64,000 nt of DNA from Candidatus Woesearchaeota archaeon (GTDB taxonomy: Archaea > Nanobdellota > Nanobdellia > UBA10117 > ARS21). Made by a program: the position numbers and the translations under genes. Within the stretch, counting starts at the first letter, position 1, and every line of letters begins with the position of its first letter. The stretch spans positions 16,715 through 80,714 of the forward strand of contig CAYFOG010000003.1 in assembly GCA_964344705.1 (NCBI GenBank). Reading direction: 5' to 3'. Below the pieces are notes generated by a model, which worked only from the letters and a program-made list of their open reading frames with translations, did not search any database and was not told where the DNA came from. Positions 18,635 to 39,600 of this stretch are shown piece by piece.

Positions 18635-19740
18635 TCTATTGCCTCCTGAGTAATTGGGTCAAATCGTTTCAAATCAATTTTTGTGGTTTTTCCAATTATA
18701 TTTGAGAATTCTTCAGAAGGTAATCCTCCGGCATATTGTTGCGGACGCATTGCATAAATCATTTCTTTTGTAATTGTAGTTCCGGCAGAAATATTTTGTC
18801 CGGCCATAAGTGACTTTCTGAATAATGGTCTGAAAACTGCTTCATCTTCATTAAGTGTTTTCTCAGTTTTTCCGAGACTTCTTTTTGTTGATTCAGAATT
18901 TAATATTTCTTGTTGTTTTTCTAAAGTTGATTCTAATTCTCTAATTCTAGAAACTAATTGCTTAAACTCTTCGGGAGTTTGTGAGACTTTATGATCTGCC
19001 CCATAGAAATCTCTTGATAAGGTGAAATGTTTTTCAATCACTTTGGATCCAAGTGCGACTGCAGCGACTGCTGCATCATTTTCGATTGAATGATCTGAAA
19101 ATCCAATTGGGATATCAAATTTTTCACTGTAAAATTTTATTGTGTTCAGATTTAGCTCTTCTGGAGGACAGGGATATTTGGATACGCAATGAAGTAGTAT
19201 TGGTGTTGTATTTTTTGATTTTAGAAAGTTGATTGCTTTTTCAGTTTCCTCGAGAGTTGACATTCCTGAGGAAAAAATTATTGGTTTTTTTGTTTCTGCC
19301 AAATAATCTAGAATTACAAAGTCAAGTATGTCTCCAGACCCTACTTTCCATACTTTGGGATTTAATTTGTTTAATCTCTTTGCTGCGCCCCGGCTCATTG
19401 GTGTTGACATGAACATTATTTTTTGTTCGTCGCAGAATTCTTTCAATGGTTTCCAAAATTCAAGAAAGGGTGTTGCGTGAGTGTTTCTAGAAACCCATGA
19501 ATATCTGTCTGATCCTTTTTTGGTGAAGTGTGGTGAAGTGAAATCAATGTTTAGTACTTCATCATGAACGTAATGAGTTTGGAATTTGACTGCATCTGCT
19601 CCGGCCTCTTTTGCTTTCAGAACAAGCTCTTTTGCATTGTCAAGATATTCTTCAACAGATCTGGATTCTTCAGTTTGAATAAAATTCTTTCCAATTTCGG
19701 CGATGATAAATGTGCGTGCTAGAAGTTTATCAAGTTCCAT
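18631..19740 (-). CDS. neuB: N-acetylneuraminate (nonulosonate) synthase, NeuB family with C-terminal SAF domain
   Basis: TIM-barrel motif GADAVKFQTHY plus a C-terminal SAF/antifreeze-like domain; 369 aa. Confidence 0.8.
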   Translation of the reverse strand: MELDKLLARTFIIAEIGKNFIQTEESRSVEEYLDNAKELVLKAKEAGADAVKFQTHYVHDEVLNIDFTSPHFTKKGSDRYSWVSRNTHATPFLEFWKPLKEFCDEQKIMFMSTPMSRGAAKRLNKLNPKVWKVGSGDILDFVILDYLAETKKPIIFSSGMSTLEETEKAINFLKSKNTTPILLHCVSKYPCPPEELNLNTIKFYSEKFDIPIGFSDHSIENDAAVAAVALGSKVIEKHFTLSRDFYGADHKVSQTPEEFKQLVSRIRELESTLEKQQEILNSESTKRSLGKTEKTLNEDEAVFRPLFRKSLMAGQNISAGTTITKEMIYAMRPQQYAGGLPSEEFSNIIGKTTKIDLKRFDPITQEAIE

Positions 19741-19787
19741 GAGTTTGGGTTGGAACTATCATTTTAAAGGTTATGAAAGAAAAATAG

Positions 19788-21173
19788 TTAGAGTCTTTTG
19801 AATTCTTTCTCAAACCCGTCTACTAGAAGTTTGGTGTTGTTTTGATCCTTCATGAATTTCTTATATTTTCCCACATAAAACGCCTGTCCGGGATGTGTTG
19901 CTTCAATAACTGCGTTTATGTATTTGTATTGCTGTTTAGTCGTTAGTTTCTTTTTGAGTGTTCTCGTTATTGCGTTTGGAAGTTCATAGAAATCTCTGAC
20001 TCTTTCAAAATAATCAAATATATCATAATATGCTCGCCCCAGAACGATTGTGGGTTTTTTGTGTAGTAATGCTTCCCATCCCGTATTTGAATTAATTGTT
20101 ATTACTCCTTTTGAATTCTTTAGAATGTCGTGAGTGTTGGTTTTTGTATTAATTAGTCTAACATTGTATAGTTTTTTTATTTTTCTTAATTCGGATATCT
20201 TGAATTCTCCTTCTCCATTTGGATGTTGTTTTACATATAATTTGTATTTTATTGGTAGATGTTTTGAAATTGATTCAATTAATTGAAATTGATTATAATA
20301 TTGTGGTGCTCGTAGAAGTATTTGTGCATCTCCGCTTCGATGTAATGGAAAATATAAATATTTTTCATTGAAATTTGGTGGTTCAGTCATATGTTTTGCA
20401 ATGGGTTTTCTTAATGGTCTGATGCTCTGTTCTTTTGCAATATGCCATAAATTTGCATAAGGATTCCTGAATTTTTCATATCGTGCATTGCTGTATATGC
20501 TTCTCACAAATGACGCTAGCTCGATTATTCCCGGTACTCTGAAAACATTGTATGTTAATTTCTTTTCTTTTTTTGTGGGAGTTAGATAGTTCTTAACTCG
20601 TTTTATTTGTTTTGTAGTCAATTTTTTGTTTTTGTTTTTCTTCCAGTATTTTGTTAACTCGTCCCATCGTCCGGCGGGATCTTTGACAGTTACAAATGTG
20701 TTTGGAATTGGATTAACTTTGTAAATCATTTGTATTGCTCTGAACCTTGGTGCAACACATCTCGGTACCAAATTTACAAATCTTTCTTGACCTCCGAGAA
20801 TTACGTCTGGTTTGTGTTTCTTCAAATATTCTTCCCAGAACTTGAAATGTTTTACCAAATCTTGGAATGCGTGTTTGCGTTTTTTTGAAGAGTAATTCTT
20901 GTCTGCAGTTAGAAGTAGGTTCATGTTTGTATTGTATTTGTCTTCATATTTTTCAAGCTCTTTTTGTAAATTATTGATTTTGTAGGTTTCAAACTTGTCA
21001 AGAATATTTTCAACGGTTTTCCCTCGTTGCTTTAGAAAATTTTCTGCCTTTTTTGAATAAGTGACGTTCTGGACCGTGTAACCTCTTGCTTCAAACTCTT
21101 CAGTTAGAACTAATTCTCGCTTTGCGAAAGTTAAGGAGTTTGATATGAATATGATTTTTTTTACTTTTTTCAT
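19788..21173 (-). CDS. KpsS/KpsC-like (Capsule_synth family) putative keto-sugar transferase
   Basis: 461 aa. The segment YLYFPLHRSGDAQIL resembles the conserved PLQ..DSQ core of KpsS/KpsC beta-Kdo transferases. The gene sits directly upstream of neuB-neuC-neuA. Confidence 0.4.
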   Translation of the reverse strand: MKKVKKIIFISNSLTFAKRELVLTEEFEARGYTVQNVTYSKKAENFLKQRGKTVENILDKFETYKINNLQKELEKYEDKYNTNMNLLLTADKNYSSKKRKHAFQDLVKHFKFWEEYLKKHKPDVILGGQERFVNLVPRCVAPRFRAIQMIYKVNPIPNTFVTVKDPAGRWDELTKYWKKNKNKKLTTKQIKRVKNYLTPTKKEKKLTYNVFRVPGIIELASFVRSIYSNARYEKFRNPYANLWHIAKEQSIRPLRKPIAKHMTEPPNFNEKYLYFPLHRSGDAQILLRAPQYYNQFQLIESISKHLPIKYKLYVKQHPNGEGEFKISELRKIKKLYNVRLINTKTNTHDILKNSKGVITINSNTGWEALLHKKPTIVLGRAYYDIFDYFERVRDFYELPNAITRTLKKKLTTKQQYKYINAVIEATHPGQAFYVGKYKKFMKDQNNTKLLVDGFEKEFKRL

Positions 21174-21212: not shown

Positions 21213-22484
21213 TTAATACTTCAGTCTGCTGAAATGTTTTTTCAATATTTTGTTGTTTATTGATGCCAGATTTTTGTTTAAGGTTTGAGATTTCAATATC
21301 TGCGCATTTGGCAGTTTTTTCAATTGTTTGTATCTGTTTTGTTGATCTTCCAAGTTTTGTTTGATAATTGTTTTTCTTCGTTTCTTGAGTTTTGTGATGT
21401 TGGTATCTATAATGAATGTTTGGTCTGGCTTTGGAAATAATCTCAAGAGCAATTTCATTATTATTGATTTCTCTGCGTAAGGATATTGCCCGTAAACATG
21501 GTAAAAATATCTGTCACAAATTACTAATTCTCTGTTTCGTAGTTTTGGATATATTTTTGTTAGATATGTTGTTAGATATTCAACAAATAAGTATGTGAAA
21601 AATAATTCGTATTTTAAACTGAATTTTGGTGTCTTTTCAACTGTTGCAGTTTTGTATAAAGCTTTCTTTGGTATTTTTTGTAATAGTTTTGTTAAAGGTA
21701 AGATTGGATTCCATCCAAAATAGAAATAATTTGCTTTGAGTTTTAATTTGTCAAACAATTTGTTGTATGTTTTTACTGACTCTTTGGAGAGTGTTGATTT
21801 TCCAGAACCGTTTGGTCCAATCAAAGCGATTAGTGCGCCTTTTCTTTTCGATGAACTCCGTTTTGTGAAGAATTGTATTAATTGCTTTGTAAGAAGCATT
21901 TGAGTCTTTATATTTAAGATTGGTTTTATTGGTAGTGTTAGTTTTTTTTCATTGATTAGTTTGTAAAAATTTCTTTTCCAGCCATATTTTTCTAATTGTG
22001 AGTTTATGTACTCATAGTCTAAGTTTTTGTTTTTGAAAATCTTTTTTTCGGTTGGAGTTATTTTTCTATTTTCAAATAATATGTGTGCAGCATGAATCAA
22101 AACTTGGTCCTCTTTGCTTGGAATTTTCACTAGTGGATTTAATTGCTTGGCTCTTTGAGTGACTTTTTCTTGGTTCAAGGCTTTTATTCCGAGCCATGCA
22201 ATTCTACGATGCAAATGTAAAATAATTATGAAATTTTTCTCAAATTTTACCATCATTGTTTTGAAAGGTTCATTCTTTTCAGTCAGATAAATTTGATATT
22301 TATTTTTTTGAAGAACTTTCATTGCTTGTTTGTAGTCTTTGTTATTTTGGAATAAAATATCAAGTCCTCCGATTGGAGTGTTATGTTTTTCAGTCTGTTT
22401 GAAAAGATTGTAATCTATTTTTGATTTATTGAAAAGCGTGAGTGGAAGTTTGTATATTTCGGGAATTTTGTATTCTACAAGCAT
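21213..22484 (-). CDS. two-domain protein: N-terminal LicD/nucleotidyltransferase-like domain plus C-terminal P-loop kinase
   Basis: N-terminal G(G)LDILF plus an HLH motif; Walker A LIALIGPNGSGKSTL at about residue 215. Paralogous in architecture to the 25339-26604 protein. Confidence 0.45.
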   Translation of the reverse strand: MLVEYKIPEIYKLPLTLFNKSKIDYNLFKQTEKHNTPIGGLDILFQNNKDYKQAMKVLQKNKYQIYLTEKNEPFKTMMVKFEKNFIIILHLHRRIAWLGIKALNQEKVTQRAKQLNPLVKIPSKEDQVLIHAAHILFENRKITPTEKKIFKNKNLDYEYINSQLEKYGWKRNFYKLINEKKLTLPIKPILNIKTQMLLTKQLIQFFTKRSSSKRKGALIALIGPNGSGKSTLSKESVKTYNKLFDKLKLKANYFYFGWNPILPLTKLLQKIPKKALYKTATVEKTPKFSLKYELFFTYLFVEYLTTYLTKIYPKLRNRELVICDRYFYHVYGQYPYAEKSIIMKLLLRLFPKPDQTFIIDTNITKLKKRRKTIIKQNLEDQQNRYKQLKKLPNAQILKSQTLNKNLASINNKILKKHFSRLKY

Positions 22485-25338: not shown

Positions 25339-26604
25339 ATGAGTTCACGTAAGAATGCTCTTAGAATTCTTAGGAAATTTGGCCAGAGCAAAGTTAATTA
25401 TGCGATTATGCGTAATTGGGAATTTTTGACTAAAGATGTTCGTCTTGGAAAAGATATTGACATTGTTATTGATTCAAAGAGCGTAGGTAAAGCTGGAAAA
25501 ATTTTGCTCAAAGAAGGTTTTGTTCGTGAGAAAATATCTCCCTACTCTCATCACTTTGGATATGCTAAATATTTTTCAAAGGAATTGAAGTTGGTTAAGT
25601 TTCATTTCCATGTTGGAGGAATAAGTGGCCGTCATGTGACTTATTTGTCTGCTGAGCAAATATTGCGTCGTCGAGAAAGGATTGGGAAATATTATGTTTT
25701 GTCTCCTGAAGATTTGTATATTTCGTTGGTTTTACATTCTCCTGGAAGCAAAAGATATTCTAAAGTTGTAAACAAGTTGAAAAAGCTTGACAAAGAATAT
25801 TTGAGAGTTAATTTGATTGATATTTTTGGAACTTCGCTTGGAACAAAAGTTTTTGAAAGTAAGTTTTCAGATTTAAGGAACTTAAAGACACAAATCCGCG
25901 GTAAAGTGTCTTTGGGTGATCCAATTGGCGCGATTTATATCCTTGGAATGTCTGTAATTTGGTATATTCCAAAACTTATTCGTGGTTCTCCAGTTGTAAG
26001 CTTTATTGGGATGGATGGTTCTGGAAAAACTACTGCAACTTCTAAGATGATTGAGCTCTTGAAGGAGCATCGGATAAAAAGTGAGTTGGTTTATGTGGGT
26101 CGAGGTAGAGGAAATATTCTTCCGATTCAATTTTTTGGTAGAAAGTACAAACGTAGAGAGAAACAGATTGATTCTAAGTCAAAAAAGAATAAGGATATTA
26201 AATTTTCAAGAAAAGTTTTGTACTCTTTGGCTGCGCCGGTGTTTTACTTGGACTTTTTGTTAAGATATTTCAGAGTTTTTGTTGCTCGACGAACTAAGAA
26301 AGTTGTAATCACAGATAGATTTGCAACGGACTTCTTGATTATGAAGAATGTTCCGTTGTGGTTGAGAAATTTATTGTATATTTTGTCTCCGAAACCCAAC
26401 GCAGTTATTTATTTGTATAATTCTCCAAGGCTCTTGTATAAACGAAAACCGGGTCACCCGGCAGGTGATTTAGAGCGTCAAGAAAAATTATATGCTTCGG
26501 TTCTTAGAAAAGTGAAAAAAGTTCACAGAGTTAAAAGTTTGAATGAGTGTCAAACAATCCAAGATGTTTCAGAAATTATTTTTGGTGAGATAATTTCAAA
26601 TTAA
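25339..26604 (+). CDS. two-domain protein: N-terminal LicD/nucleotidyltransferase-like domain plus C-terminal thymidylate-kinase-like P-loop kinase
   Basis: N-terminal RLGKDIDIVID (GxDxD NTase-like) plus an FHFHVGG motif; Walker A SFIGMDGSGKTT (Tmk-type GxDGxGKTT). Confidence 0.45.
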   Translation: MSSRKNALRILRKFGQSKVNYAIMRNWEFLTKDVRLGKDIDIVIDSKSVGKAGKILLKEGFVREKISPYSHHFGYAKYFSKELKLVKFHFHVGGISGRHVTYLSAEQILRRRERIGKYYVLSPEDLYISLVLHSPGSKRYSKVVNKLKKLDKEYLRVNLIDIFGTSLGTKVFESKFSDLRNLKTQIRGKVSLGDPIGAIYILGMSVIWYIPKLIRGSPVVSFIGMDGSGKTTATSKMIELLKEHRIKSELVYVGRGRGNILPIQFFGRKYKRREKQIDSKSKKNKDIKFSRKVLYSLAAPVFYLDFLLRYFRVFVARRTKKVVITDRFATDFLIMKNVPLWLRNLLYILSPKPNAVIYLYNSPRLLYKRKPGHPAGDLERQEKLYASVLRKVKKVHRVKSLNECQTIQDVSEIIFGEIISN

Positions 26605-27610
26605 AGCTTTTGTAGAGTTTCAAATAATTTTCATTCATCTGCTTTTCATCGTACAGTTTTTTTACTCGCGCTCTTGCAGATTTTCCAAGGCGTTTCTGAA
26701 GTTTTGGATTTGATTTTAGCTTCTTAACTGCTGAGGTAATTTGCTTTGGTGAGTAAGTATCAACACATATTGCTGTATTTCCTACAATCTCCTTTATGTG
26801 TGGAAGGTTTGTTGTTATTATTGGTTTTCCACAAGACATTGTTTCAATTAAAGTGAGTGGAATTCCAATTGAAGAAACGTCTGATCGGAAAGGTAACACG
26901 ATTATGTCTGATTTATTGTAATCTTTGACTATGTTTTTGCTTGGTCCGTAAACTTTGATTCTTTCGTTGTGTTTCTTTGCGTAGCTTTCCGTTTTTTCTG
27001 AATACTGTGTTAGGTGTAAATTTAGATTTAGCTCTTTATCATCTAACAATTTGAAGGCTTTTACTGCGTCTGGAAAACCTTTGAGTGGTGTGTTATGTCC
27101 AAAATACGCTAAAGTTAATTTTTTGTTCTTTGATGTTTTAGTTGGTTTGAATTTGTTTGTGTCTATTCCTAACCGAATTAGTTTTGTGTTTGGAAGATTT
27201 AGTTTGTTTTTGAGATATTTTGTTGGAACTACAATTGTGTTCATCTTGCTTATTGCTCGGGTTTTGAAAGTGAGAGGTATGAAATTAGTTATTGTTGCAG
27301 GAATCATTCTTAATAAATATGTAATTTTTGATTTTTCATAGAATTTTAAGTATTCAAGTATATATCTTAAATATTCCAGAGGATTGCTTGCTAGATTTGA
27401 GTGTAATGAATATATTGCTTTATCTGAAATGTTCTTGTTTGTTAGTGCTGGAAGAAATCCTGAAGTATGTATATGATATAAATCTGCAGAATTTCCGTTG
27501 TGAGTTATTTTGTACTTCTTTTTCTGCATATAGTTTTTGATTTCTGATTGAATTTGTACTAATCCTTCTGCTTTGAAATCTTTGAAATCTCCAATAAACG
27601 ATACTTTCAT
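26576..27610 (-). CDS. GT4-family glycosyltransferase
   Basis: ...GIPLTLIETMSCGKPIITT... GT-B C-terminal motif; last gene of the heptose operon, with a 4-nt overlap to the upstream GT9. Confidence 0.65.
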   Translation of the reverse strand: MKVSFIGDFKDFKAEGLVQIQSEIKNYMQKKKYKITHNGNSADLYHIHTSGFLPALTNKNISDKAIYSLHSNLASNPLEYLRYILEYLKFYEKSKITYLLRMIPATITNFIPLTFKTRAISKMNTIVVPTKYLKNKLNLPNTKLIRLGIDTNKFKPTKTSKNKKLTLAYFGHNTPLKGFPDAVKAFKLLDDKELNLNLHLTQYSEKTESYAKKHNERIKVYGPSKNIVKDYNKSDIIVLPFRSDVSSIGIPLTLIETMSCGKPIITTNLPHIKEIVGNTAICVDTYSPKQITSAVKKLKSNPKLQKRLGKSARARVKKLYDEKQMNENYLKLYKSFNLKLSHQK

Positions 27611-28602
27611 CTCAATTCCCTCAAAACATCAGCTAATTTTATTTTATTCAGCTCTTTTCCGTTTCCAAAATATTTTCCCCTGTTGTTGTAACTTGGTGCT
27701 TTTTGCTTCCAGATTACTTTGCTTCCTTTGTTTAACGGCCCGAGTCGCTTTGGATCAGTTGGTCCAAACAGCGCGATTACATTGTTGTTGACTGCTGATG
27801 CCATGTGCATTGGTCCAGAATCATTACAAATTATTTTGTTACACTTGGCCATTAATGCTACGCTTTGGTGAAGTGTTGTTGTTCCTATTACTGAGTTTAC
27901 TGTTTTGGATTTTAGTATTTCTTCTTCTTTGTCTTTGTCCGTTGGTCCACCGAGCAAAAGTATTGGTTGCTTAATCTTTTTCACAAGCTCAACATACTTT
28001 TTGATATTCCAGATTTTTGCGTTTAGTGTTTGGCCGGGGTTGTCGCCTCCGCCAGGACATATTCCAATCGTGTTCTTTGTTAGTTTATGAGTTCTAAAGA
28101 ATTTGTTTGCAAAGTTTTTGTCTTCTTTTGTGAGGATTAAATCTAGTTTTGTATCATAATAGTTTGGTTCAAAGTTTAGTGCATTGAGTTGGTTTAGATA
28201 ATAATAGATATCGTGCCGTCTTCGGCCATAATGTATTTTGTGTGTTAATCCGTACCCTTCTTTTCCGTTTCTGTCAAATCCAATTCGCGTTGGAATGTTA
28301 AACAGCCGTGCAGTTAGGTTGAATATCCAATGCCGGTCAAGAACGAAGATTATGTCGTAGTTATCTTCTCGGATTCCCGCGATTAGGTTAATTAGTTTGA
28401 GTGGTTTCTTCTTGAAGAACATTGCTTCATCAAATTTTATTATGTTGTTGATGTTTGGGTTGTTTAGAAGTGCTTGTGAAGCAGACTTTCCGACTAGATA
28501 ATCTATTCTTGCTTTGGGGTGCGTTTGTCGAAGTTGTCTGACTAAGGGTGTGGTCATTAACGTATCTCCAATTGCTCCTATCTTAAACAATAATATTTTC
28601 AT
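27607..28602 (-). CDS. GT9 ADP-heptose:acceptor heptosyltransferase (WaaC/WaaF-like)
   Basis: N-terminal ILLFKIGAIGDTLMTTPLVRQLRQ..P.A.IDYLV is the GT9 heptosyltransferase signature; 331 aa. Confidence 0.75.
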   Translation of the reverse strand: MKILLFKIGAIGDTLMTTPLVRQLRQTHPKARIDYLVGKSASQALLNNPNINNIIKFDEAMFFKKKPLKLINLIAGIREDNYDIIFVLDRHWIFNLTARLFNIPTRIGFDRNGKEGYGLTHKIHYGRRRHDIYYYLNQLNALNFEPNYYDTKLDLILTKEDKNFANKFFRTHKLTKNTIGICPGGGDNPGQTLNAKIWNIKKYVELVKKIKQPILLLGGPTDKDKEEEILKSKTVNSVIGTTTLHQSVALMAKCNKIICNDSGPMHMASAVNNNVIALFGPTDPKRLGPLNKGSKVIWKQKAPSYNNRGKYFGNGKELNKIKLADVLRELR

Positions 28603-29512
28603 TTGCTTTTATCCATTCAATATATTCTTTTATTCCGCTTTCCAAATTGTATTTGGATTTGTAGTTTGGCAAAAAGTTGTTTGTGTCTGCTTGTGTGAAC
28701 TCTTGGTAGAATTTGTATGGGTTGTCAATGTATTCTGGTTCGAGGTTTGTGCCTAAGTTTTTGTTTAATTCTTCAACGATTTTATTGAAATCTTCGGGGG
28801 TTCCAGTTGCTACGTTGTATATTCCGGACGGTGCGTTCATTGCGATTATGTTTGACTCAACTATGTCTTTGATATAAACAAAATCTCGTTTCTGTTGTCC
28901 GTGTTTGAATATTTTTGGTTTATTTCCCTCTTTCATCTGCAAGTATAGTTGCCAAATCATTGATGACATCTTTGTTTCCATTTTGTAAGTCTCTCTCGGT
29001 CCGTAGACATTGAAGTATCTTAGTCCAACAATGTGAGTGTTTGGATTTTCCTTTAGAGTTTGTCTTGCTATATTGTCGCAAGATAGTTTTGAGTATCCGT
29101 ATATGTTTGCAGGAAATTCGCCTTTCCCAACTGTGTTTGGTGGTACTGTTAATCCGTATGTTGCTCCAGAAGAGGCATAGATAAGTTTGATATTATTTTT
29201 CACACAGTGATTGATTAGTCGCTTTGTTACATTTGTGTTGATTTCCATCACAAGCTTTTGGTCGGTTTCTGTTGTGACAACTTGTGCGCCTTGGTGGAAG
29301 ATTGTTGTTGGTTTATCCAACGCGTTCCAATCAAATTCTCGCAAGTCGGAAGTTATTACTTCACCATTGAAACCGTACAAGTTCTTGAAGTGTCCTGTGC
29401 TGAAGTCATCAATAACAGTTATCTTTGCTTTAGGATATATTTCTTGCAGCTCTAATGCTAAGTTGGAACCTATAAACCCCGCACCTCCCGTTACTACAAA
29501 GTGTTCAACCAT
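28583..29512 (-). CDS. hldD: ADP-L-glycero-D-manno-heptose 6-epimerase (HldD/RfaD-like SDR)
   Basis: [18 protein letters not shown]...VIDDFSTG plus a YGYSK catalytic motif; embedded between hldE and GT9. Confidence 0.7.
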   Translation of the reverse strand: MVEHFVVTGGAGFIGSNLALELQEIYPKAKITVIDDFSTGHFKNLYGFNGEVITSDLREFDWNALDKPTTIFHQGAQVVTTETDQKLVMEINTNVTKRLINHCVKNNIKLIYASSGATYGLTVPPNTVGKGEFPANIYGYSKLSCDNIARQTLKENPNTHIVGLRYFNVYGPRETYKMETKMSSMIWQLYLQMKEGNKPKIFKHGQQKRDFVYIKDIVESNIIAMNAPSGIYNVATGTPEDFNKIVEELNKNLGTNLEPEYIDNPYKFYQEFTQADTNNFLPNYKSKYNLESGIKEYIEWIKANENIIV

Positions 29513-30926
29513 TTTGACTTTTCCTTATTCTTTCAATTGTGTTTGTAGATGATTTTCCTTCCACTAATTTGATTATTTTTACTTCTCCACCGTGCTTTTG
29601 GACTGTTTCTGTTTCTGGCAAATCTTTGGCGTTGTAGTCTCCTCCTTTTACATGAACGTCTGGTTGGAGTTGGTTGAGCAGTTCTTCAGGAGTGTCTTCA
29701 TCAAATAGAACAACATAATCTACTGTAGTTAAGTTTGCTGCAAGTTCTGCTCTTTCGGTTTCGCTGTTGATTGGTCGTTTTGGACCTTTGTATCTCTTAG
29801 TTGAAGCATCTGTGTTGATTGCTAATATTAGAATGTCGCCGAAAGCTTTGGCTGTGTTAAGCAATTGTGTGTGTCCGACATGAAGTAAATCATATATTCC
29901 GTTTGTTGTGACTATTTTCTTTCCTTCGGCTTTTAGTTTTTGGACAATTTGTGATAGTTCTTCTTGAGTTTTTATCTTTGAATGCTTTCCATTGAATGAT
30001 GATTTTAATTCTTCTGAAGTGAGCGTTGCTGTTCCGAACTTTCCTACAACTACGCCCGCTGCCTGGTTAGCAATCTGTGTTGCTTCGTATAATTCTGCTT
30101 TTGAGGCTAGCGCAAGTGTTAATGCCGCTATGAATGTGTCTCCCGCTCCAGAAACATCGTAAACTTCGCGGGCTTTCGTTGGTAGATGATTGTATTCTTT
30201 TGTATATTTGTTGTATGAGGAAGTTCCATTTGGTCCTTGTGTGATTATTACATGAGTATTGTGTTTTTCTGCAATTAATTGGGATAATTCTTCCGGGGAG
30301 GTGTTTGTGTTTGTTATTTCTTTTGCTTCTTTTATGTTGGGCGCAATTGTAAACACATCTTTGAATAAATTCATATTGATTGGTTTTGGGTCCACAACAA
30401 TCACTATGTCGAGTTTCTTTAACTCTTCGGTTAGTTCTTTTGTTAGCGTTCCTTTGTTGTAATCTGATAATAGGATCATGTCAAACTGATTTGATTTGAT
30501 GAACTTGATTATTTGTTGGACATGTTCTGATTGAATTGGTTTTGGATCTTCAAAATCCACTCTCAATGCTTGTTGGTTTTGTGCAACTAGGCGGGTTTTC
30601 TTTATTGTTGTGAAGTTATTTCTTTCAATTAGAAAGGTATTGATGTTTGCTTGCTTGAACAGTTCTAGCATCGGCTCTTTGAACTTGTCGTTTCCAACCT
30701 GTCCAATTACTGTGCACTTTGCTCCGAGTGCTACCACGTTGTTTGCAGTGTTTGCTGCGCCACCAAGTCTGTGTTCTCGGTTGTTGTTTGAAACGTTGAG
30801 AACTGGTACTGGTGCTTCTGGATTGATTCGGTTTATGTCTCCGAATAAGTATTCGTCAAGAATTAAATCTCCGATTACAAGTATGTGCTTCTTTGGAAAT
30901 TCCTGAATGGTCTTAATCAGTTTCAT
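29505..30926 (-). CDS. hldE: bifunctional D-beta-D-heptose 7-phosphate kinase / D-beta-D-heptose 1-phosphate adenylyltransferase
   Basis: N-terminal pfkB ribokinase-like domain (GGAANTANN, DVSGAGDTF) plus a C-terminal cytidylyltransferase-like domain (NGIYDLLHVGHTQLL); 473 aa. Confidence 0.85.
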   Translation of the reverse strand: MKLIKTIQEFPKKHILVIGDLILDEYLFGDINRINPEAPVPVLNVSNNNREHRLGGAANTANNVVALGAKCTVIGQVGNDKFKEPMLELFKQANINTFLIERNNFTTIKKTRLVAQNQQALRVDFEDPKPIQSEHVQQIIKFIKSNQFDMILLSDYNKGTLTKELTEELKKLDIVIVVDPKPINMNLFKDVFTIAPNIKEAKEITNTNTSPEELSQLIAEKHNTHVIITQGPNGTSSYNKYTKEYNHLPTKAREVYDVSGAGDTFIAALTLALASKAELYEATQIANQAAGVVVGKFGTATLTSEELKSSFNGKHSKIKTQEELSQIVQKLKAEGKKIVTTNGIYDLLHVGHTQLLNTAKAFGDILILAINTDASTKRYKGPKRPINSETERAELAANLTTVDYVVLFDEDTPEELLNQLQPDVHVKGGDYNAKDLPETETVQKHGGEVKIIKLVEGKSSTNTIERIRKSQNG

Positions 30927-31503
30927 TTACTTTGTAGATTATATGGTCAACTAGTTCACACCAAGTATGGATTATGTTTATGTGTGACTCTTGGATTCTT
31001 GCAGTTGTGTGAGAAGGTATAATTATATTTGAATCTAAAGTTAGTTCGTTAATTGTTCCGCCAGTTTTTCCGTTAAGGCATATTGTTTTCATACCTTTTT
31101 CCTTTGCAGTTTCAAAGGCATTATGAATATTCTTTGAGTTTCCCGAGGTTGTGATTCCGACTAGAACGTCTCCCGGTCTTCCCAAGCCTTCAACTTGTCG
31201 TGAAAATACAAACTCATAACCATAATCGTTTGATGCAGCGGTTACTGCTGACGCATCTGAGGACAGTGCAATCGCTGGAACACTTGGTCGCTCTTTGTTG
31301 TATCGAATAATTAATTCTGCTGCGAAGTGTTGTGCGTCTGCTGCTGAACCGCCGTTTCCGCAAGTTAGTATTTTATTTCCGTTTCTTACTGATTCAAGGA
31401 TTATTTCTCCCGCTCCAACTATTTGATTTAGGTATTTGTCATCCAATAGTTTCTTTTTCGTTTCAATTGACTCTTCTAAGAAGTCTCTAGCTATTTCTTT
31501 CAT
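30913..31503 (-). CDS. gmhA: phosphoheptose (sedoheptulose-7-phosphate) isomerase, SIS domain
   Basis: CGNGGSAADAQHFAAEL...GITTSGNSKNI is the canonical GmhA motif set; 196 aa. Confidence 0.85.
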   Translation of the reverse strand: MKEIARDFLEESIETKKKLLDDKYLNQIVGAGEIILESVRNGNKILTCGNGGSAADAQHFAAELIIRYNKERPSVPAIALSSDASAVTAASNDYGYEFVFSRQVEGLGRPGDVLVGITTSGNSKNIHNAFETAKEKGMKTICLNGKTGGTINELTLDSNIIIPSHTTARIQESHINIIHTWCELVDHIIYKVNETD

Positions 31504-32612
31504 CTTTTCTTTCTTCTTTTTTGTTTGTATATTAACTTTTCAGCGTTTCGGAATACATCATTGACTGTGATTTTATCCATCCAATTTTGTGAGGGAAGCT
31601 TGAAGCTTCCCAAATGCGGGTTAATAACTGGGGCTTCTTTTGATTTGTAAAGTGAGAGGTTGTTTTTACCATATGGTGCGTATCGGACTGGAGTATTGGG
31701 TCCAAACAGTCCAATTGTATCTGTTCCTTGCGCTGCCGAGATGTGTAGAGGTCCCGTATCGTTTGAAATGTAGATGTTACATCGTTCTGTGAGTCCGAAT
31801 AATTGTTTCAATGAGAATTTTCCTGCAAGATTGTAAACTGATTCCCGGTAATTCATTTGTTCTATTATGTTTTCAATGTATTTGTGATGGTTTAATGTAT
31901 CGGGAATTAGAATTATTGCATTATGCTCTTCAATTAGCTTGTCCGCAAGTTTTGCGAAGTTGTTTGCTGACCATCTACGCCACTTTGCTGTTCCAGCACT
32001 CGTGACAGTCATTCCAACTATTGGTCTGCGCTTTGGAAGTCTTTTGAAGAAGTTGTCTACTCTTTTTTTGTCTGAATTCGAGTATTTTAGTAGACTTAGT
32101 TTGTCTGGTTTATTGGGTTTTATGTTTAGAGGTTTGAGTAAATTCAAGAAAGTGTTGACTGCGTGAATTTTATCATTATAATGAACTAATTGATCGTAAA
32201 GTTTTGCTCTCAGACCGTGTGAAAAACCAATTACTGTTTCCGAAAGATGGTTTGTTAGAAGAGCAGATAGTTTTAGATATGGTTCTAAGTCAAAGGCCAA
32301 GTCATATTTCTTATATTGCTTTGTGAGTGTTAGTAAATTGTGTGGTTCAAATAGTTCTATATCGTCGATGAATGGTTGATTATTATATACTGCTTTGTTT
32401 TGATTTCTGCATAGAACAGTTATTCTTGTGTTCGGATAGTTTTGTTTGAATTGTTGGATTAATGGCAAAGTTAGAACTGATTCTCCAATTGCCCAGAGTT
32501 TTACAAATAGCACTTCTTCTGGAACTGCTTTCTTTTGTCGCTTCAAAAGTGAGAGTGTATTTACTAGTGGAGTTCCTACGATTTTGTCTATCTTTCGTTG
32601 TAAACTAAGCAT
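31500..32612 (-). CDS. GT9 heptosyltransferase (second copy)
   Basis: GT9-like fold (ESVLTLPLIQQFK...TVLCR) with a C-terminal GPNTPVRYAPY motif; 370 aa. Confidence 0.65.
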   Translation of the reverse strand: MLSLQRKIDKIVGTPLVNTLSLLKRQKKAVPEEVLFVKLWAIGESVLTLPLIQQFKQNYPNTRITVLCRNQNKAVYNNQPFIDDIELFEPHNLLTLTKQYKKYDLAFDLEPYLKLSALLTNHLSETVIGFSHGLRAKLYDQLVHYNDKIHAVNTFLNLLKPLNIKPNKPDKLSLLKYSNSDKKRVDNFFKRLPKRRPIVGMTVTSAGTAKWRRWSANNFAKLADKLIEEHNAIILIPDTLNHHKYIENIIEQMNYRESVYNLAGKFSLKQLFGLTERCNIYISNDTGPLHISAAQGTDTIGLFGPNTPVRYAPYGKNNLSLYKSKEAPVINPHLGSFKLPSQNWMDKITVNDVFRNAEKLIYKQKRRKKR

Positions 32613-33132
32613 TTTTTATCTTATTTGCTGCGTCTAGCAAATCCTCTGCGATGAATGTTGGTTTTGAGTTTGATTCTGGTTGTATTTCAGATATTCCAGT
32701 TGTTACTAAGACTGATTTCAGTCCCACGCTCTTAGCCAGTTCTATATCTGAGGATCTGTCGCCGATAACATATGAGTTATTTTTGTCAAAATTTGGTGTG
32801 AACAGTGGTTCAATTAGTTTTGTTTTGGGCTTTCTACAGTCGCAGTTGTCTTGTGGAGTGTGTGGACAGAATAGAACTTCTTCAATGTTGATATTTGCTT
32901 GTTTTAGTTCTTCGAGCAAGTGATTGTTGAACTCGTGCATTTGCTCTTCAGTATAGAATCCTCGACCAATTCCTGATTGATTTGTGACAATTATTAGTTT
33001 GAAGCCTTGCTCTTGTAGACTTTGAAGACCTTTGATTGTGTTTGGTAGGAGTTCTGAGTCTCCAATATTGTGAGTGTATCCGTCGTCTTTGTTGATTGTC
33101 CCATCTCGGTCTAGAAATATGATTCGAGTCAT
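32605..33132 (-). CDS. gmhB: D,D-heptose 1,7-bisphosphate phosphatase (HAD superfamily, GmhB)
   Basis: IFLDRDGTIN...VTNQSGIGRG...CDCRKPK are the GmhB HAD motifs and zinc-binding cysteines; 175 aa, first gene of the operon. Confidence 0.85.
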   Translation of the reverse strand: MTRIIFLDRDGTINKDDGYTHNIGDSELLPNTIKGLQSLQEQGFKLIIVTNQSGIGRGFYTEEQMHEFNNHLLEELKQANINIEEVLFCPHTPQDNCDCRKPKTKLIEPLFTPNFDKNNSYVIGDRSSDIELAKSVGLKSVLVTTGISEIQPESNSKPTFIAEDLLDAANKIKNA

Positions 33133-33176
33133 GGATTGGCTTAGTAAGAGGTTTAAAAATGTTTATGAAATAAGGT

Positions 33177-33940: not shown

Positions 33941-35140
33941 ATGATTGAATTGGTTTTCGGACTAATTATTGGAGTCTTTCTAGGAATTCTTACGGGTCTT
34001 ATTCCTGGACTACATACTAATACTATTGCAATAATTTTAATGGGTCTTGTTTTGAGAGGTTGGTTGGATTTTAGTAATACTGTTGTTGTTGCGGGATTGG
34101 TGTGTATGCTTGTTGTTCACTCGTTTGTTGATTATATTCCGAGCATATTTTTTGGTGCTCCAAACTCTGATACGGTTCTTAGTGTTTTACCAGGTCATCG
34201 TCTATTGTTGAAAGGTGAGGGCTACTTTGCATTGCGTGAGACTGTTGTTGGAGGAATCACTTCCGTTATTATTGGGTTGCCTTTCTTGATATTCTTTAGT
34301 TGGTTCTTAATGAATTGGTTGGATTTTTTGAAATTGTTTGTGGCGCCGGTTTTGATAATTATTACTTCGTGGTTGATATTGAGTGAGGTTAATTTGAAAA
34401 AAATTGTTTGGGCAACTTTTATCTTTCTTTCTGCAGGAGTCTTGGGAATAATTAGTTTGAATACTTATATTGTGAAAGATCCTTTGTTTCCTTTATTGAG
34501 TGGATTTTTCGGAGTAAGTATGTTACTATTTAGTCTTGGAAAACGTGGTGTTGTTCCCTCGCAAAAAATTGGGGGTGAATTTGAATTATTTAGTTTTGGG
34601 AATTTGGCTTTGGGTTTCGTCAGTTTATTTGCCAGCAGTTTGATGGTGTTGTTTCCTAGTTTAGGTCCAACGCAAAGTGCAACGGTCGCTCAAGCAGTAC
34701 TTAGAAAAAGTTCACATCGAAAATTCTTGAATGTTATGGGCGGAATTAATACTTTGGATGTATTGTTTACGCTTGTTATGTTGTATTTGGTCGGTTCTGC
34801 CCGAAGCGGCGTTCTTGTTGTTGTTCAACAATTATTTGAGATAAATTTGAATATTTTTTTGGTAATGTTGTTATCTTTGTTCATTGGTTTGGGAGTTGGA
34901 GTTCTTGTTAGTTTATATATTGGAAAAAGAGTTAGTAAAGTTGTTTCGAAGATAAATTATAATCTGGTTTCAATACTTATGATTCTTTTTCTTGGAATCT
35001 TGGCAATTTTCCTTTCTGGATTTTTGGGTTTGTTTCTGATGAGTATTTCAACAGCAATTGGAATTATATCTCAAATGGTGGGTGTTAAAAAGGTCCATGC
35101 GATGGGCGTCCTAACTCTTCCAACTATTTTAAATTTTTAA
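33941..35140 (+). CDS. polytopic membrane protein, TctA/DUF112-like transporter family
   Basis: 399 aa, about 10-12 TM, N-terminal GILTGLIPGLHTNT resembling the TctA G..PG.G motif. Confidence 0.4.
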   Translation: MIELVFGLIIGVFLGILTGLIPGLHTNTIAIILMGLVLRGWLDFSNTVVVAGLVCMLVVHSFVDYIPSIFFGAPNSDTVLSVLPGHRLLLKGEGYFALRETVVGGITSVIIGLPFLIFFSWFLMNWLDFLKLFVAPVLIIITSWLILSEVNLKKIVWATFIFLSAGVLGIISLNTYIVKDPLFPLLSGFFGVSMLLFSLGKRGVVPSQKIGGEFELFSFGNLALGFVSLFASSLMVLFPSLGPTQSATVAQAVLRKSSHRKFLNVMGGINTLDVLFTLVMLYLVGSARSGVLVVVQQLFEINLNIFLVMLLSLFIGLGVGVLVSLYIGKRVSKVVSKINYNLVSILMILFLGILAIFLSGFLGLFLMSISTAIGIISQMVGVKKVHAMGVLTLPTILNF

Positions 35141-35689: not shown

Positions 35690-35910
35690 ATTTATCGTTT
35701 GGAAAAAGGTTTCCAAAGTTTTTCCACTAATTTCCAAAGTTTTTCCACAAAAAGACCCCTTTATTTCCACTGGAGTTTCCAATTGAATTGGTTAAAAACC
35801 ACCTTACTTAATGCTTATTGTTTATTTTTTGTCCATTTTGTTTGGAAAGAGTTTTGGAAAAGTTTTGGAAAGAGTTTCCAAAGTTTTTCCACTAATTTCC
35901 ACTGTTTTCC
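35690..35910. repeat. array of TTTCCA(C/A)/GTGGAAA-type direct and inverted repeats (ORB-like), including an exact 27-bp duplicate
   Basis: TTTCCAAAGTTTTTCCACTAATTTCCA occurs exactly at 35710-35736 and 35875-35901. TTTCCACTAATTTCCAAAG also occurs at 35487-35505 inside the ORF. Multiple TTTGGAAA/TTTCCAAA 8-mers lie in both orientations between the Cas4-like and wHTH genes. Confidence 0.8.
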
Positions 35911-36620
35911 AAAGAAGTTTGTATGTGTGTGCTGGATTCTTTTTTGCTAAAACAAGTATCGTAAAATTCGCAATAATTACAGAAATATGATTCTTCTCTT
36001 ACAGGAGGTGTTGATGTTTTTAGCGCATTAGCTAATACTGTTCCTCTTGCTTCCAAATAACCCAGCATATTTCGCTTCTCAACCTCAAAGGTTTTTATCT
36101 TACTTAAGGAAAAGTAAACTATCATTAATTTTTTGACATCTTTTTGTTGGGATTCAGGTAACATTGAGAAGTATGATTGTATCTGCATAGTATGTTCGGG
36201 TTTGGGTTGTTTTGGTATTCGTTCTGTTGTCTTGAATTCATACATTATGTTGTTGGAAAATACGTCAATAAATCCTATGGCATCGAATACAGAAAAAGGT
36301 GCTTGGAGAAATACTTCATTTTCTTCTTCAGGAATGTGTTCTTGGAAGAAATTATGAATTGCGTGTCCTCTTGAAAATATCCAAAGTTTTTCCAAAGATA
36401 TTGGGATTTCTTCAGTTAAATCATAATAGGACTTTCTGAGGCAGTGTCCAGTTAGTCGAGTTACTCCAAAACGTGGTTTCTTGTTTGGATCTTTCTTTTT
36501 TCTTGGCTTTTGTCCGGCAAGAAGTGCTCTAAGGACAACATTTGGGTAGTTTTCAAAATTACTTTCTCTTACTTCATCAATATGTCTTTCCACACCATCT
36601 GGACAAATAATGTTACTCAT
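35892..36620 (-). CDS. Cas4/RecB-family PD-(D/E)xK exonuclease with 4-Cys Fe-S cluster (stand-alone; Dna2-nuclease-like)
   Basis: All Cas4 signatures are present in order: GVTRLTGHCLRKSYY (N-terminal Cys), GHAIH, AIGFIDVF (motif II Asp), YEFKT (ExK), QIQSYF (QxxxY), and C-terminal CNYCEFYDTC (CxxCx5C). Its 8-nt overlap with the PolD DP2 stop implies an operon. Confidence 0.8.
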   Translation of the reverse strand: MSNIICPDGVERHIDEVRESNFENYPNVVLRALLAGQKPRKKKDPNKKPRFGVTRLTGHCLRKSYYDLTEEIPISLEKLWIFSRGHAIHNFFQEHIPEEENEVFLQAPFSVFDAIGFIDVFSNNIMYEFKTTERIPKQPKPEHTMQIQSYFSMLPESQQKDVKKLMIVYFSLSKIKTFEVEKRNMLGYLEARGTVLANALKTSTPPVREESYFCNYCEFYDTCFSKKESSTHIQTSLENSGN

Positions 36621-39600
36621 TTATGAAACCTCCAAGACTTATTTGTTTTGTAGCATCTTTCCCGAAGACTGATTCGACTCTGCTGCTAAACAATCTTATC
36701 GATTCTCTCAAGTATTCACTAGTACCTTCAATTTCAATTAAGTTTAAAGTTGGCTCCAAATATTTCTTTACTGAACCTTCACTTATTGTGTATATTACTT
36801 TCGGTTTGTTGCATTTTACACACTTACCTGCGAGAGGTGGTCGACGATATTTTTCATTACAAGCAATGCAACGGAATCTTTGCATTGTGAACTTGCGCAT
36901 GTTTCCCTTAAGATCTCTTATGAAGTGTCCGTTGATTATTAGCTCACCAACTTTGTGTAAATCTACAGCACGTATTTTGTCAGCTAAATCGAGCTGCCCT
37001 TCCATTTTTTCCACCATTGTTGGAAGATATTTATATGCAGAAACATTTACTCCTTTGTTCATGTCTGAAACGGTATGTGTGAATCCGTGATTTTGATATT
37101 GATCTTCTTGGTCAATTACATCACCTATCGATTTAACTCTTACCTCCCAAGGATATTTCATTCCCAATGTTGCTTCATAAAACTCTAAAGGATAATCCCA
37201 AGTAATATTTAAATCGTATACTTCATCGTCAACTTCTTTGGAATTTAATATCGTAGATATAACTAAGGGTGCGTCCATGCTTCGGGCACCTCTTCGGTCA
37301 GGTAAAAAGTCTCTTGAGAAATTTAGGAATGCATCCAAAGTTAACATTATTGCTGTTTCTTCTCCATCTAAATCTCTACGTTGTGCTGCATGCCACATTG
37401 GATGGGCGATTACTCCTGAAATATTTGAGAATCCAATTATCCGACCAATGATTCCTGCTGACGTGTGTGGGGCAAGTCCGATTATTAGTTGTCCGATTAG
37501 ATCTTCATTTGTTGCGATGTTGTAGAATGCAGGCAATTTGTATAAATTCACAAGTTCTTCATCAACAAAATCTGCAACTCGTTTGAACACTGAGGTTGCG
37601 GATTCAATTCCTAAGAATTCTTCGTTCGGTAGAATTACGTCTTGAGGGAATATTTCCACCAATTGGGTTGGTTTCGTTAGTGGTTGGTTATGAACATCTT
37701 TTGTATATCCTAATTTATTTGCTTTCTTGACAGATAGTCCAATTTCTTTTGGTGTAAAGTGTGTTGCTCCCAATTCAGTTCCGTCATATCTTACTGTTCC
37801 ATCTTTGTTTACTCGGAGCGAGTGTTTGGCGCGTAGTAAACCTTTGGTTGGGTGTTCAACGTATCGGAATTTGTTCATTGTCGCTCGAACGCCTTTAATT
37901 AGTTTAGGGAAAGGTCCGTCCCATTCTTTTTTTATTCTCTTTGAAAGTTCAGGTAGAGCATACTTTCTCCTTTCGTAAGGGACGCAGGTTGGTGTTTCAG
38001 GTGTTGAATATTTTTTCTTTGTTTTGTAATCCACATATTGTTGTTGAGTATTTTCAGAATTACAGTGTTCGCACTTCTGAAATATTGTTGATTTGTTGCA
38101 GTCCAAACATTTGATTATTGGGAAGTCTGCAGTTACATGTCCAACAGTAATTGCTTCATTGAATGATCTCAATCGTCCACCTTCATTTCCAACCGGGAAT
38201 AAGAAATTTGGTGAGCCTTTCAAATCTCGCATTTTTGCCTTTTCAGGTCTTCCCATTCTTGCGCCGATTCCTGTTCCAAATTTATTTCTGAATTTTATGT
38301 CTGTTCTGAAGTGTGTATTTAGAATATTTTGATTTAATTTTGTTAAGATTATTTTATTGTCTTTTATCGTATGCGGACAACCAATTAATTCTAGCAATCT
38401 TTTTTCGGGCGCATCTGCAGGCATTTCTGATTTTATGTAATTTTGAAGTTGGATTTTTTGTTTTTCTTGGAGAGCGTCTAAATAGAATGTGAACTCTGGA
38501 TGTAGGGGAATGTTAAAATCTTTTGAGAGTTTGATAGCTGTGTCAAAATTTATTTCGGGTGGGATAAACGTGTTGAAAAAATCCTTTGGTAAATTGTGAT
38601 ACGTTTTCGGGTTGTCTTTGATTGCTTTCTTCAATTCCTGCGCCCACCATTCTGGACAATATCCTGCAGGAACGAGAAAGTGTCCGTTTTCTGTGAATTC
38701 TCCCGGAGATATTAGTATGTCTCCCAAATATAATATTTCTGCGATTTCTTTTGTGAGTTCCTTTGCCTCTTCTTCGGTTTTTGGTTTGTGTACTGATCCG
38801 TCTTTAAGTTTTACAATTGGTCCTTCAATTGAATCGCAAGAAGTAAGTGAAGTTGATTTCCCGGGTCGCTCAACCCTTAGTTGTGTTCCGATAGCCAAAT
38901 AATTGTTTAAGACTTGCATTGTTATTGGAGATATTGCCCAAGATCCATGACCTGTTAATCTTGACCTTCCATATCTTTGTCTGAAGCCACCCTGTCTTAA
39001 TGGGTGTGTGAATACGGGCCGTCCTGCAACAATTTCTGCAATATATGAATAATTTGGTTTGAGTTTGTTGTTGTCCTTTTCCTCAGTTTTCTGTCCATCT
39101 GCTTGTTCATGAATTTGTTTTTTTAGCTCTTGGTAATCATTTAGCCACTGCCAGTCTAAATCAAAATCTTTGCCCCAATTATTTAGCTTTTTCATTACTT
39201 TTCCGCCTTTTAGTGGAAGCGCGTCAGTCAACATGAGCGCAACACCGCCTCGAATTCTGTCAGTTTCAATTCGTGAGAGTCCTTTGAAATTTGATACTGT
39301 TAATTCAGAAGTTGGATCTCCGTCGAGCTCCACGGGAAGATTTGAAATTATGTGTCTAATTTCTTCTTCAGTTGGTTTGTATTGTTTTCTCTCAACTCGT
39401 TCGTAATAATCCATGACTTCTGTGTACATTCTTTTGATTTCTTGAGTCGTTGGATCATATTTTTCTATTCCTTGCTTTTTTCGGACGTAATCTGCAATTA
39501 CTGTTGTGACTGCTGACGCTGTTGCTCCACCGCCTCGAATCGGTCCAGCATAGTAAAGTGCTAAATAATCCTTTCCGTCGTTTCGTTTTTTGAATTTTAC

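Follow-up and report, generated by a model that had tools for sequence, protein, structure and literature searches.

Why would an archaeon carry what looks like the bacterial toolkit for the heptose of the lipopolysaccharide (LPS) inner core? The question is raised by seven overlapping minus-strand genes at positions 26576–33132 of a 64,000-nucleotide stretch of contig CAYFOG010000003.1 (positions 16,715 to 80,714; hereafter the window), assembled from a Candidatus Woesearchaeota archaeon, which encode four enzymes of nucleotide-heptose synthesis, two family 9 glycosyltransferases (GT9a and GT9b) and one family 4 glycosyltransferase (GT4). We find that this operon is a well-preserved example of a widespread and already noted archaeal ADP-heptose cassette; what is new here is that GT9a and GT9b form distinct orthogroups common to DPANN archaea and Methanococcales, that the operon is modular, and that it sits in an island linked to the oligosaccharyltransferase AglB. 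On balance we lean towards a reading in which a marine member of the DPANN class Nanoarchaeia has a strain-variable island for a surface glycan, most likely an N-glycan, and the operon is its nucleotide-heptose module.

The seven-gene operon and its products

In transcription order, all on the minus strand, the genes are gmhB (32605–33132, 175 amino acids, candidate beta-type 7-phosphatase), GT9a (31500–32612, 370 amino acids, predicted heptosyltransferase), gmhA (30913–31503, 196 amino acids, sedoheptulose-7-phosphate isomerase), hldE (29505–30926, 473 amino acids, bifunctional heptose-7-phosphate kinase and heptose-1-phosphate nucleotidyltransferase), hldD (28583–29512, 309 amino acids, ADP-glyceromanno-heptose 6-epimerase), GT9b (27607–28602, 331 amino acids, WaaF-like, predicted second heptosyltransferase) and GT4 (26576–27610, 344 amino acids, a retaining GT-B glycosyltransferase). 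Successive stop and start codons overlap by 8, 4, 14, 8, 20 and 4 nucleotides, so the content, order, strand and 4–20-nucleotide overlaps are as an earlier note on this DNA had described them. The gene boundaries are identical in the independent gene calls of public assemblies for the same contig, and at least 17 contigs of independent assemblies carry the identical locus. Because N-terminal residues are conserved family-wide (D9 is invariant in GT9a, and K2-I3-L4 is conserved in GT9b), the start codons chosen for the two GT9 genes are supported as well. Transmembrane segments were predicted in none of the seven proteins. The 44-nucleotide intergenic region upstream of gmhB (33133–33176, minus strand) is a putative archaeal promoter: reading it by eye, we noted a TATA-like TTTTTAAA box at 33152–33159, 20–27 nucleotides upstream of the gmhB ATG, which as a pattern match would fit an archaeal TATA box serving a leaderless or short-leader mRNA.

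We assigned families with Pfam and NCBIfam profiles and compared bit scores with the curated NCBIfam cut-offs. GmhA scored 211.3 bits against TIGR00441 (cut-off 209.45) and 230 bits against NF010546, contains a SIS_2 domain, and shares 48–58% identity with its counterparts at other DPANN loci and 52% with the Methanococcus maripaludis protein. HldE joins PfkB and cytidylyltransferase-like domains in a single 473-residue protein; domain II scored 191.2 bits against TIGR02199 (cut-off 181.5), domain I scored 320 bits against TIGR02198 (cut-off 345), and the full-length model NF008454 gave 444 bits (cut-off 521) in an end-to-end alignment spanning residues 6–470. Its motifs are GAGD at residue 260, HVGH at 349 and LVEGKSST at 454. 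GmhB found its best NCBIfam match in the beta-specific model NF006506 (168 bits, cut-off 178), with 110 bits against the alpha-specific NF050049 (cut-off 250); it carries DRDGT at residue 8 and a Cys/His zinc loop, CPHTPQDNCDC in translation. HldD scored 302.9 bits against TIGR02197 (cut-off 274.6), with GGAGFIG at residue 9 and YGYSK at 138. Judged from these profiles, all four pathway enzymes match their families at or near equivalog level with catalytic motifs intact, and the seven family assignments lie far beyond chance.

Which nucleotide-heptose would this pathway make? The S-layer glycoprotein of Aneurinibacillus thermoaerophilus offers a comparison outside LPS: it uses GDP-D-glycero-alpha-D-manno-heptose, made through alpha-anomer intermediates by the HddA kinase and the HddC GDP-transferase. 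That system resembles the proposed one in supplying heptose for a surface-protein glycan without LPS, and the GmhA and GmhB steps are common to both. The window, unlike A. thermoaerophilus, encodes a nucleotidyltransferase of the rfaE domain II (ADP, beta) type, a GmhB whose best match is beta-type, and HldD. We prefer the beta (ADP) route to its alpha (GDP) counterpart because the beta GmhB model outscores the alpha model, the transferase is of the rfaE-domain-II type, and HldD is present; on the same grounds we rejected a GDP-alpha-heptose pathway of the S-layer kind.

The glycosyltransferases GT9a and GT9b match PF01075 with E values of 4.7e-31 and 5.3e-33, respectively, and are ~25% identical to each other. 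Their AlphaFold2 models (mean predicted local distance difference test scores of 93.9 for GT9a and 95.1 for GT9b) predict a GT-B fold like that of WaaC and WaaF: the best Protein Data Bank folds for GT9a were 3TOV, WaaF (1PSW) and WaaC (TMq 0.64–0.78), the top match for GT9b was WaaF 1PSW (TMq 0.77), and the best entries for the pair were 3TOV, 1PSW and 2H1H. Both proteins share with WaaC and WaaF a conserved N-terminal acidic residue and a D-x-G-x-x-H donor-site motif. In GT9a the acidic residue follows G43 at position 44 (Glu in 45 of 53 aligned sequences, Asp in the other 8), and D285 and H290 of DTGPLH are invariant, with G287 completing the motif; in GT9b G12-D13 is conserved, and D261, G263 and H266 are invariant. 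We take the N-terminal acidic residue to be the catalytic base, Asp13 in WaaC, the correspondence with WaaC being drawn from a phmmer alignment covering the range 216–296 in both proteins and from the literature. The third glycosyltransferase, GT4, matches PF00534 (E 2.3e-22) and PF13692 (E 4e-18) and has orthologs of 35–37% identity in glycan loci of M. maripaludis and of a DPANN contig.

The four enzyme families, the domain architecture and the GT9 GT-B fold are all shared with the bacterial LPS heptose pathway and its transferases WaaC, WaaF and WaaQ, although the window gathers every heptose gene into one operon where E. coli has them scattered. The kinship does not extend to the name that such GT9 proteins usually receive. 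GT9b scored 140.4 bits against the HepII model TIGR02195, just above its cut-off of 134.6, and 104 bits against the E. coli-type RfaF model NF008162, far from the cut-off of 569; GT9a passed no LPS heptosyltransferase equivalog model (102 bits against TIGR02201, cut-off 170). Archaea are not known to have lipid A, and a Kdo2-lipid A acceptor is not expected; genes for lipid A or Kdo were found nowhere within the 64-kb window. The label 'LPS heptosyltransferase II', which archaeal GT9 proteins bear through a common annotation habit, is wrong for GT9a and GT9b, should not be carried over, and is corrected here.

A C-terminal Cys-rich motif (C..PC...C......C), resembling a metal site, occurs in 27 of the 53 GT9a-family sequences; the lineage of the GT9a in the window has lost all four cysteines (residues ~322–354; YKSKEAPVINPHLGSF).

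Distribution, modularity and ancestry of the cassette

The earlier note had treated the gene set as one that normally belongs to Gram-negative bacteria. Essentially the same set is present in M. maripaludis, and archaeal NDP-heptose enzymes have already been published, with ADP-heptose as their product in vitro (Tang et al., Science 2024, as described in two commentaries, PMC11573728 and PMC11461863). Orthologs of GT9a and GT9b co-localize with gmhA, hldE and hldD in metagenome-assembled genomes (MAGs) of Woesearchaeota and Nanoarchaeota and in M. maripaludis. A Woesearchaeota MAG (L086) has the order GT2-DUF2304-...-GT9a-gmhA-hldD-hldE-GT9b-GT9; a DPANN contig (L087) has STT3-GT2-DUF2304-GT9a-gmhA followed by a gmhB::hldE fusion; and a Nanoarchaeota MAG (L088) has STT3 ~5 kb from gmhA-hldE...hldD-GT4-GT9...GT9b. 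The two GT9 orthologs are adjacent to each other in Methanocaldococcus bathoardescens (L089). In M. maripaludis (L090) the order is gmhA-hldC-hldA-gmhB-GT9a-GT9b-hldD-GT4, and behind these genes come a further GT9, a methyltransferase, a GT4 ortholog and a Wzx flippase. GT9a thus directly precedes gmhA in L086 and L087 and adjoins GT9b in L089 and L090.

M. maripaludis provides the closest comparison. Like the window, its locus holds gmhA, gmhB, GT9a, GT9b, hldD, GT4 genes and a Wzx flippase in a variable surface-glycan island of an archaeon with AglB. The kinase and nucleotidyltransferase are split in M. maripaludis (HldA and HldC), whereas they are fused as HldE in the window and in other DPANN archaea; the gene order also differs, all seven genes of the window overlap, and its host is an uncultured member of the Nanoarchaeia. 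Both cassettes are described here at the level of their genes.

Two variations on this theme bear recording. At L087 (10001–11986), downstream of STT3-GT2-DUF2304-GT9a-gmhA, GmhB is fused to the N terminus of HldE to give a 661-residue protein with three activities, and the GmhB of the window shares 50% identity with the corresponding portion of this fusion. A GT2 and a small DUF2304 membrane protein stand just upstream of the heptose genes at L086 (4403–5429) and L087 (7203–8230), and a DUF2304 protein occupies the corresponding place at L088 (7944–8273) without an adjacent GT2. The GT2-DUF2304 pair resembles the mycobacterial polyprenyl-phosphate sugar synthase pair PpgS/Rv3632; the island of the window has instead a PpgS-like GT2 (13405–14109) beside a GtrA-like protein.

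Closer relatives reveal both constraint and turnover. In a congener whose HldE is 91% identical (L092), all seven genes and their overlaps are retained, and dN/dS between it and the window is 0.07–0.13 in each of the seven, which indicates purifying selection on all of them. A congener at 86% identity, compared by gene calls, has kept the operon next to an island that is otherwise different. At 76% identity, a congener with the same PolD/Cas4/PRC flank (L091) has gmhB-GT9a-gmhA-hldE followed by unrelated glycan genes and lacks hldD. Because this congener holds the first four genes alone, we distinguish a core module, gmhB-GT9a-gmhA-hldE, from an accessory module, hldD-GT9b-GT4, which also has the highest third-codon-position GC content (GC3) of the operon. 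The whole island behaves like a hypervariable surface-glycan locus.

In the same comparison with L092, dS is 0.43–0.55 for the operon genes, 1.52 for the flanking gene for PolD DP2 (36613–40008) and 1.13 for that encoding TctA (33941–35140), with similar amino-acid identities. Codon constraint may explain the low dS of the operon, or else related strains may recently have exchanged it by recombination.

Did the operon come from bacteria? We addressed this with neighbor-joining trees (Kimura-corrected distances, bootstrapped), for which the bacterial outgroup was 80 named bacterial HldE loci obtained by searching GTDB genomes with aligned HldE sequences, an arbitrary rather than a phylogenetically designed sample. 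The nearest named homologs of HldE are from Nanoarchaeota and Woesearchaeota (44–52% identity), and the best bacterial identity among the matches listed from the 80 bacterial genomes is 42%. In a tree of 196 sequences, all nine HldE sequences identified as archaeal, whether from their names or from gene context, fell into one clade that contained none of the 80 named bacterial sequences (89 of 100 bootstraps), placing HldE, by sequence, in a DPANN-archaeal clade. All named sequences among the top 120 matches of GT9a are archaeal (Aenigmarchaeota, Woesearchaeota, Undinarchaeota and Nanoarchaeia), and the named matches of GT9b come from DPANN archaea, Methanocaldococcus bathoardescens, M. indicus and Methanococcus maripaludis, plus one partial protein from a Thermodesulfobacteria MAG. 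GT9a is 39% identical to its M. maripaludis ortholog; GT9b is 47% identical to its own ortholog there and 52% to that of Methanocaldococcus. Both are only 19–28% identical to 28 bacterial GT9 proteins taken from beside bacterial hldE genes, and in a joint tree the GT9a (84 of 100 bootstraps) and GT9b (100 of 100) orthogroups excluded all 28. The window GT9s thus differ from those of the bacterial LPS system in forming separate archaeal orthogroups, and the suggestion that they are likely of bacterial origin is not supported.

HldD departs from this pattern. It is 52% identical to the M. maripaludis protein, 43–50% (BLASTP) to HldD of the Campylobacterota/Bacteroidota type and 36–37% to the HldD-like genes of L086 and L088, and it grouped with the first two, apart from the L086 and L088 genes, in 200 of 200 bootstraps. 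Because it joins the Campylobacterota/Bacteroidota type rather than the two other DPANN loci, HldD has a separate history, which probably includes an old exchange between the domains in either direction. Of the phylogenies that the earlier note had proposed as a check, those of HldE and the GT9 proteins speak against recent transfer from bacteria; clustering with well-sampled archaeal clades, which that note had named as telling against its own proposal, is largely what we found.

These results leave little room for the idea that the operon was recently gained from Gram-negative bacteria or is a mis-assembled bacterial fragment, which we consider very improbable. Its slightly raised GC3 (0.322 versus 0.272 in other genes), with HldD (0.377) and GT9b (0.364) above every other gene of the window, would suit such a gain, as would the clustering of HldD with the Campylobacterota/Bacteroidota type; but the overall GC content is 0.365 against 0.352 in the rest of the window, and the comparison of GC content and codon usage with flanking genes that the earlier note had suggested yielded mild differences, a weak signal at most. 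We rejected a call of recent horizontal transfer from composition, a mild rise in GC3 alone being too little to make it. The archaeal clades of HldE, GT9a and GT9b also stand against recent gain, as do the low best bacterial identities (42% for HldE, 50% by BLASTP for HldD and 27% for GT9) and the archaeal core genes that flank the operon on many independent contigs and in the 76–91% congeners. Recent bacterial transfer of the operon is not supported, and an archaeal MAG that contains an 'LPS inner-core toolkit' does not thereby give evidence of such transfer or of contamination. The earlier note was right about the content of the operon and its probable role and mistaken about its rarity and origin.

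An AglB-linked glycosylation island

The operon forms the right-hand end of a ~28-kb glycosylation island (~6–33 kb of the window). At the other end lies the gene for the AglB/STT3 oligosaccharyltransferase (6091–8595, plus strand; PF02516 E 3e-17; TIGR04154 111.7 bits, below the cut-off), which has WWDYG at residues 557–561 and multiple transmembrane segments. Between them are genes for an AglJ-like dolichyl-phosphate-hexose GT2 (12278–12988, plus), the GtrA-like protein mentioned above (12989–13369, minus), the PpgS-like polyprenyl-phosphate-N-acetylhexosamine GT2 (plus) and a MOP/Wzx flippase (14165–15646, plus), all assigned at family level because every NCBIfam match of the genes at 12278–15646 fell below its curated cut-off. 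The island further holds two SDR epimerases/dehydratases, GT4 enzymes, a GT4-methyltransferase fusion and Gmd. Taken together, AglB with its WWDYG motif, the polyprenyl-phosphate GT2s and the flippase identify, at the level of gene families, an island for AglB-dependent N-glycosylation.

A nonulosonic-acid module (15712–21173, minus) adds a GT4, a PseF-like CMP-transferase, a NeuC-like 2-epimerase, a NeuB/PseI-like synthase and a KpsS/Capsule_synth-like protein (19788–21173), all with NCBIfam scores under the cut-offs. Because this module lies in the island, the same or a second glycan probably carries a sialic-acid-like sugar.

Other genes of the island are less readily placed. The start of a gene for a 599-residue polytopic membrane protein (8592–10391, plus; a weak DUF6541 match of 24 bits, below the cut-off) overlaps the AglB stop codon by 4 nucleotides, and its product could be a GT-C-like partner of AglB. 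Two genes encode proteins of ~420 residues: one (25339–26604, plus) matches NTP_transf_5, an uncharacterized nucleotidyltransferase family, and has a weakly thymidylate-kinase-like P-loop, while the other (21213–22484, minus) has a weak thymidylate-kinase-like match alone. The first converges on GT4 with 3′ ends overlapping by 29 nucleotides, an arrangement kept in congeners, and relatives of the two occur in DPANN glycan loci (L087 19204–20538, L091 20538–21425, and L092 14323–15588 and 17783–19054).

That the host is an archaeon with AglB, as the earlier note had it, is confirmed by PolD, Cdc6/Orc1, LonB and the STT3 with WWDYG; because these are aboard, the contig is archaeal. Its archaeal markers comprise PolD DP2, the PolD small subunit, Cdc6/Orc1, LonB, Cdc48 and PolB. 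A cluster-mate of GT9b, seen also in Tara Oceans data, is recorded under the name 'Candidatus Nanoarchaeia archaeon', which makes the host a marine archaeon of the DPANN class Nanoarchaeia.

On the far side of the operon, a stand-alone gene for a Cas4-like (PF01930) nuclease (35892–36620, minus) overlaps the 3′ end of the PolD DP2 gene, an arrangement kept in all congeners; no CRISPR array or further cas genes were seen near it.

The proposed fate of the heptose

A heptosylated surface glycan, which the earlier note had suggested as the product, remains plausible, and the genes allow a specific route to be proposed. The seven genes would be co-transcribed from the TATA-like box upstream of gmhB, with translation coupled through their overlaps, and all seven proteins are predicted to be cytoplasmic. 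GmhA would convert sedoheptulose-7-phosphate to D-glycero-D-manno-heptose-7-phosphate, the kinase domain of HldE would form the beta-1,7-bisphosphate, GmhB would strip the 7-phosphate, and the end product in the cytoplasm would be ADP-L,D-heptose. The inverting GT-B enzymes GT9a and GT9b would each add one heptose to a lipid-linked (dolichyl-phosphate) oligosaccharide at the cytoplasmic face, and GT4 would add a further sugar to this lipid-linked glycan, which the MOP flippase of the island would carry across the membrane for AglB to transfer to Asn residues of surface proteins. The accessory module hldD-GT9b-GT4 would extend or alter the glycan.

What the sequences establish is the gene content, the family memberships, the conserved catalytic motifs, purifying selection and the recurrence of the cassette in archaea; ADP as the nucleotide, the acceptor, the order of transfer and the delivery by AglB we infer. 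The acceptor and the link to AglB are suggested by three lines of contextual evidence: STT3 lies 1–5 kb from the heptose genes in two DPANN loci, adjoining the cassette in L087 and near it in L088; ADP-heptose clusters of M. maripaludis reside in N-glycan loci that vary between strains, in cluster 1 of strain KA1 and cluster 2 of strain JJ, whereas strain S2 has different agl genes at these two places (PMC12667266, 2025); and the N-glycan of Thermoplasma acidophilum contains heptose, as a rare isomer known from few bacterial LPSs (reviewed in PMC11407970). T. acidophilum is thus a precedent for heptose in an archaeal AglB-type N-glycan, with no known link to GT9.

Several observations weigh against this scheme. 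The full-length and kinase-domain scores of HldE and the score of GmhB fall under the NCBIfam curated cut-offs, and the source of sedoheptulose-7-phosphate lies beyond what a single window can reveal. At the fifth position of its (F/L)xxGxSTT motif HldE carries Lys458 instead of the Arg that has been linked to promiscuity, and use of CDP or UDP is conceivable; that Arg is not strictly needed for nucleotide promiscuity according to the commentaries on Tang et al. (PMC11573728, PMC11461863), and from the HldE sequence ADP, not CDP or UDP, is the likely nucleotide. The trees are neighbor-joining only, with biased bacterial sampling. AglB is 18 kb away in the window, at L086, L089 and L090 no AglB gene lies within 10 kb of the cassette, and the KpsS/Capsule_synth-like and nonulosonic-acid genes of the island also suit a lipid-anchored polysaccharide. 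For archaeal GT9 enzymes generally, the acceptor is a matter of deduction.

The main rival accepts the same pathway and sends the heptoses elsewhere, into a lipid-anchored polysaccharide, lipoglycan or capsule-like polymer rather than an AglB-dependent N-glycan. We consider this unlikely, though to be taken seriously: the KpsS/Capsule_synth-like protein, the NeuB/NeuC/PseF-like CMP-nonulosonate genes and the Wzx-type flippase would all serve such a polymer, bacterial GT9 enzymes act on glycolipids, and AglB is not adjacent to the cassette in several of the loci examined. Wzx flippases and polyprenyl-phosphate GT2s serve both routes and do not discriminate between them; what argues for the N-glycan is STT3 directly beside the cassette in L087 and close in L088, and the replacement of agl genes by the cassette in the known N-glycan loci of M. 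maripaludis. A different departure would dispense with the lipid carrier, the GT9 enzymes heptosylating proteins directly (O-linked) in the manner of TibC and AAH, ADP-heptose-dependent GT-B enzymes that modify surface proteins (PMC4358343). TibC is indeed a structural relative (probability 1.0, TMq 0.52–0.58), and about half of the GT9a family has the C-terminal four-Cys motif. That motif may resemble the iron finger of TibC. The TibC fold match is, however, far weaker than those of WaaF, WaaC and 3TOV, the identity of these distant relatives is 11–13%, and a sequence search gave no TibC match at E ≤ 0.001; the GT9a of the window lacks the Cys motif, the window proteins show no obvious dodecamer or iron-finger features, and the operon has no gene for an autotransporter-like substrate. 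We rejected O-heptosylation of the bacterial autotransporter heptosyltransferase kind as leading model on these sequence and fold grounds, and hold it to be improbable.

Finally, the nucleotide-heptose could serve another purpose altogether, as a small-molecule product or a signal to a host cell, with the GT9 proteins using a different donor. DPANN archaea are typically episymbionts, and the role of NDP-heptose outside bacteria is openly called elusive, both of which would leave room for this idea; but two GT9 genes and GT4 stand tightly interspersed among the pathway genes, to which they are translationally coupled, and the pairing of pathway and GT9 recurs in distant archaea inside glycan islands with flippases, so that we give it very little weight.

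Returning to the N-glycan, we tentatively advance a further proposal, to which we grant a little less than an even chance: that GT9a and GT9b are the first archaeal heptosyltransferases, forming two archaea-specific orthogroups (DPANN and Methanococcales) that act on dolichol-linked oligosaccharides, with heptose as a modular, strain-variable N-glycan block. In the literature that could be searched we found no paper specific to archaeal or DPANN GT9 heptosyltransferases. If the proposal is true, archaeal N-glycans would contain L,D-heptose, replaced by D,D-heptose in archaea that lack hldD, and the GT9 family would have diversified on polyprenol-linked acceptors independently of LPS. The proposal would also answer why archaea make ADP-heptose, a question that 'remains elusive' in the words of the commentaries on Tang et al. 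(PMC11573728, PMC11461863). The hypothesis of heptosylated archaeal N-glycans is directly testable, because genetically tractable strains of M. maripaludis carry the same cassette. Together, this locus and its relatives hint at a purpose for archaeal nucleotide-heptose, in that the pathway is coupled to two archaea-specific GT9 enzymes in N-glycosylation islands.

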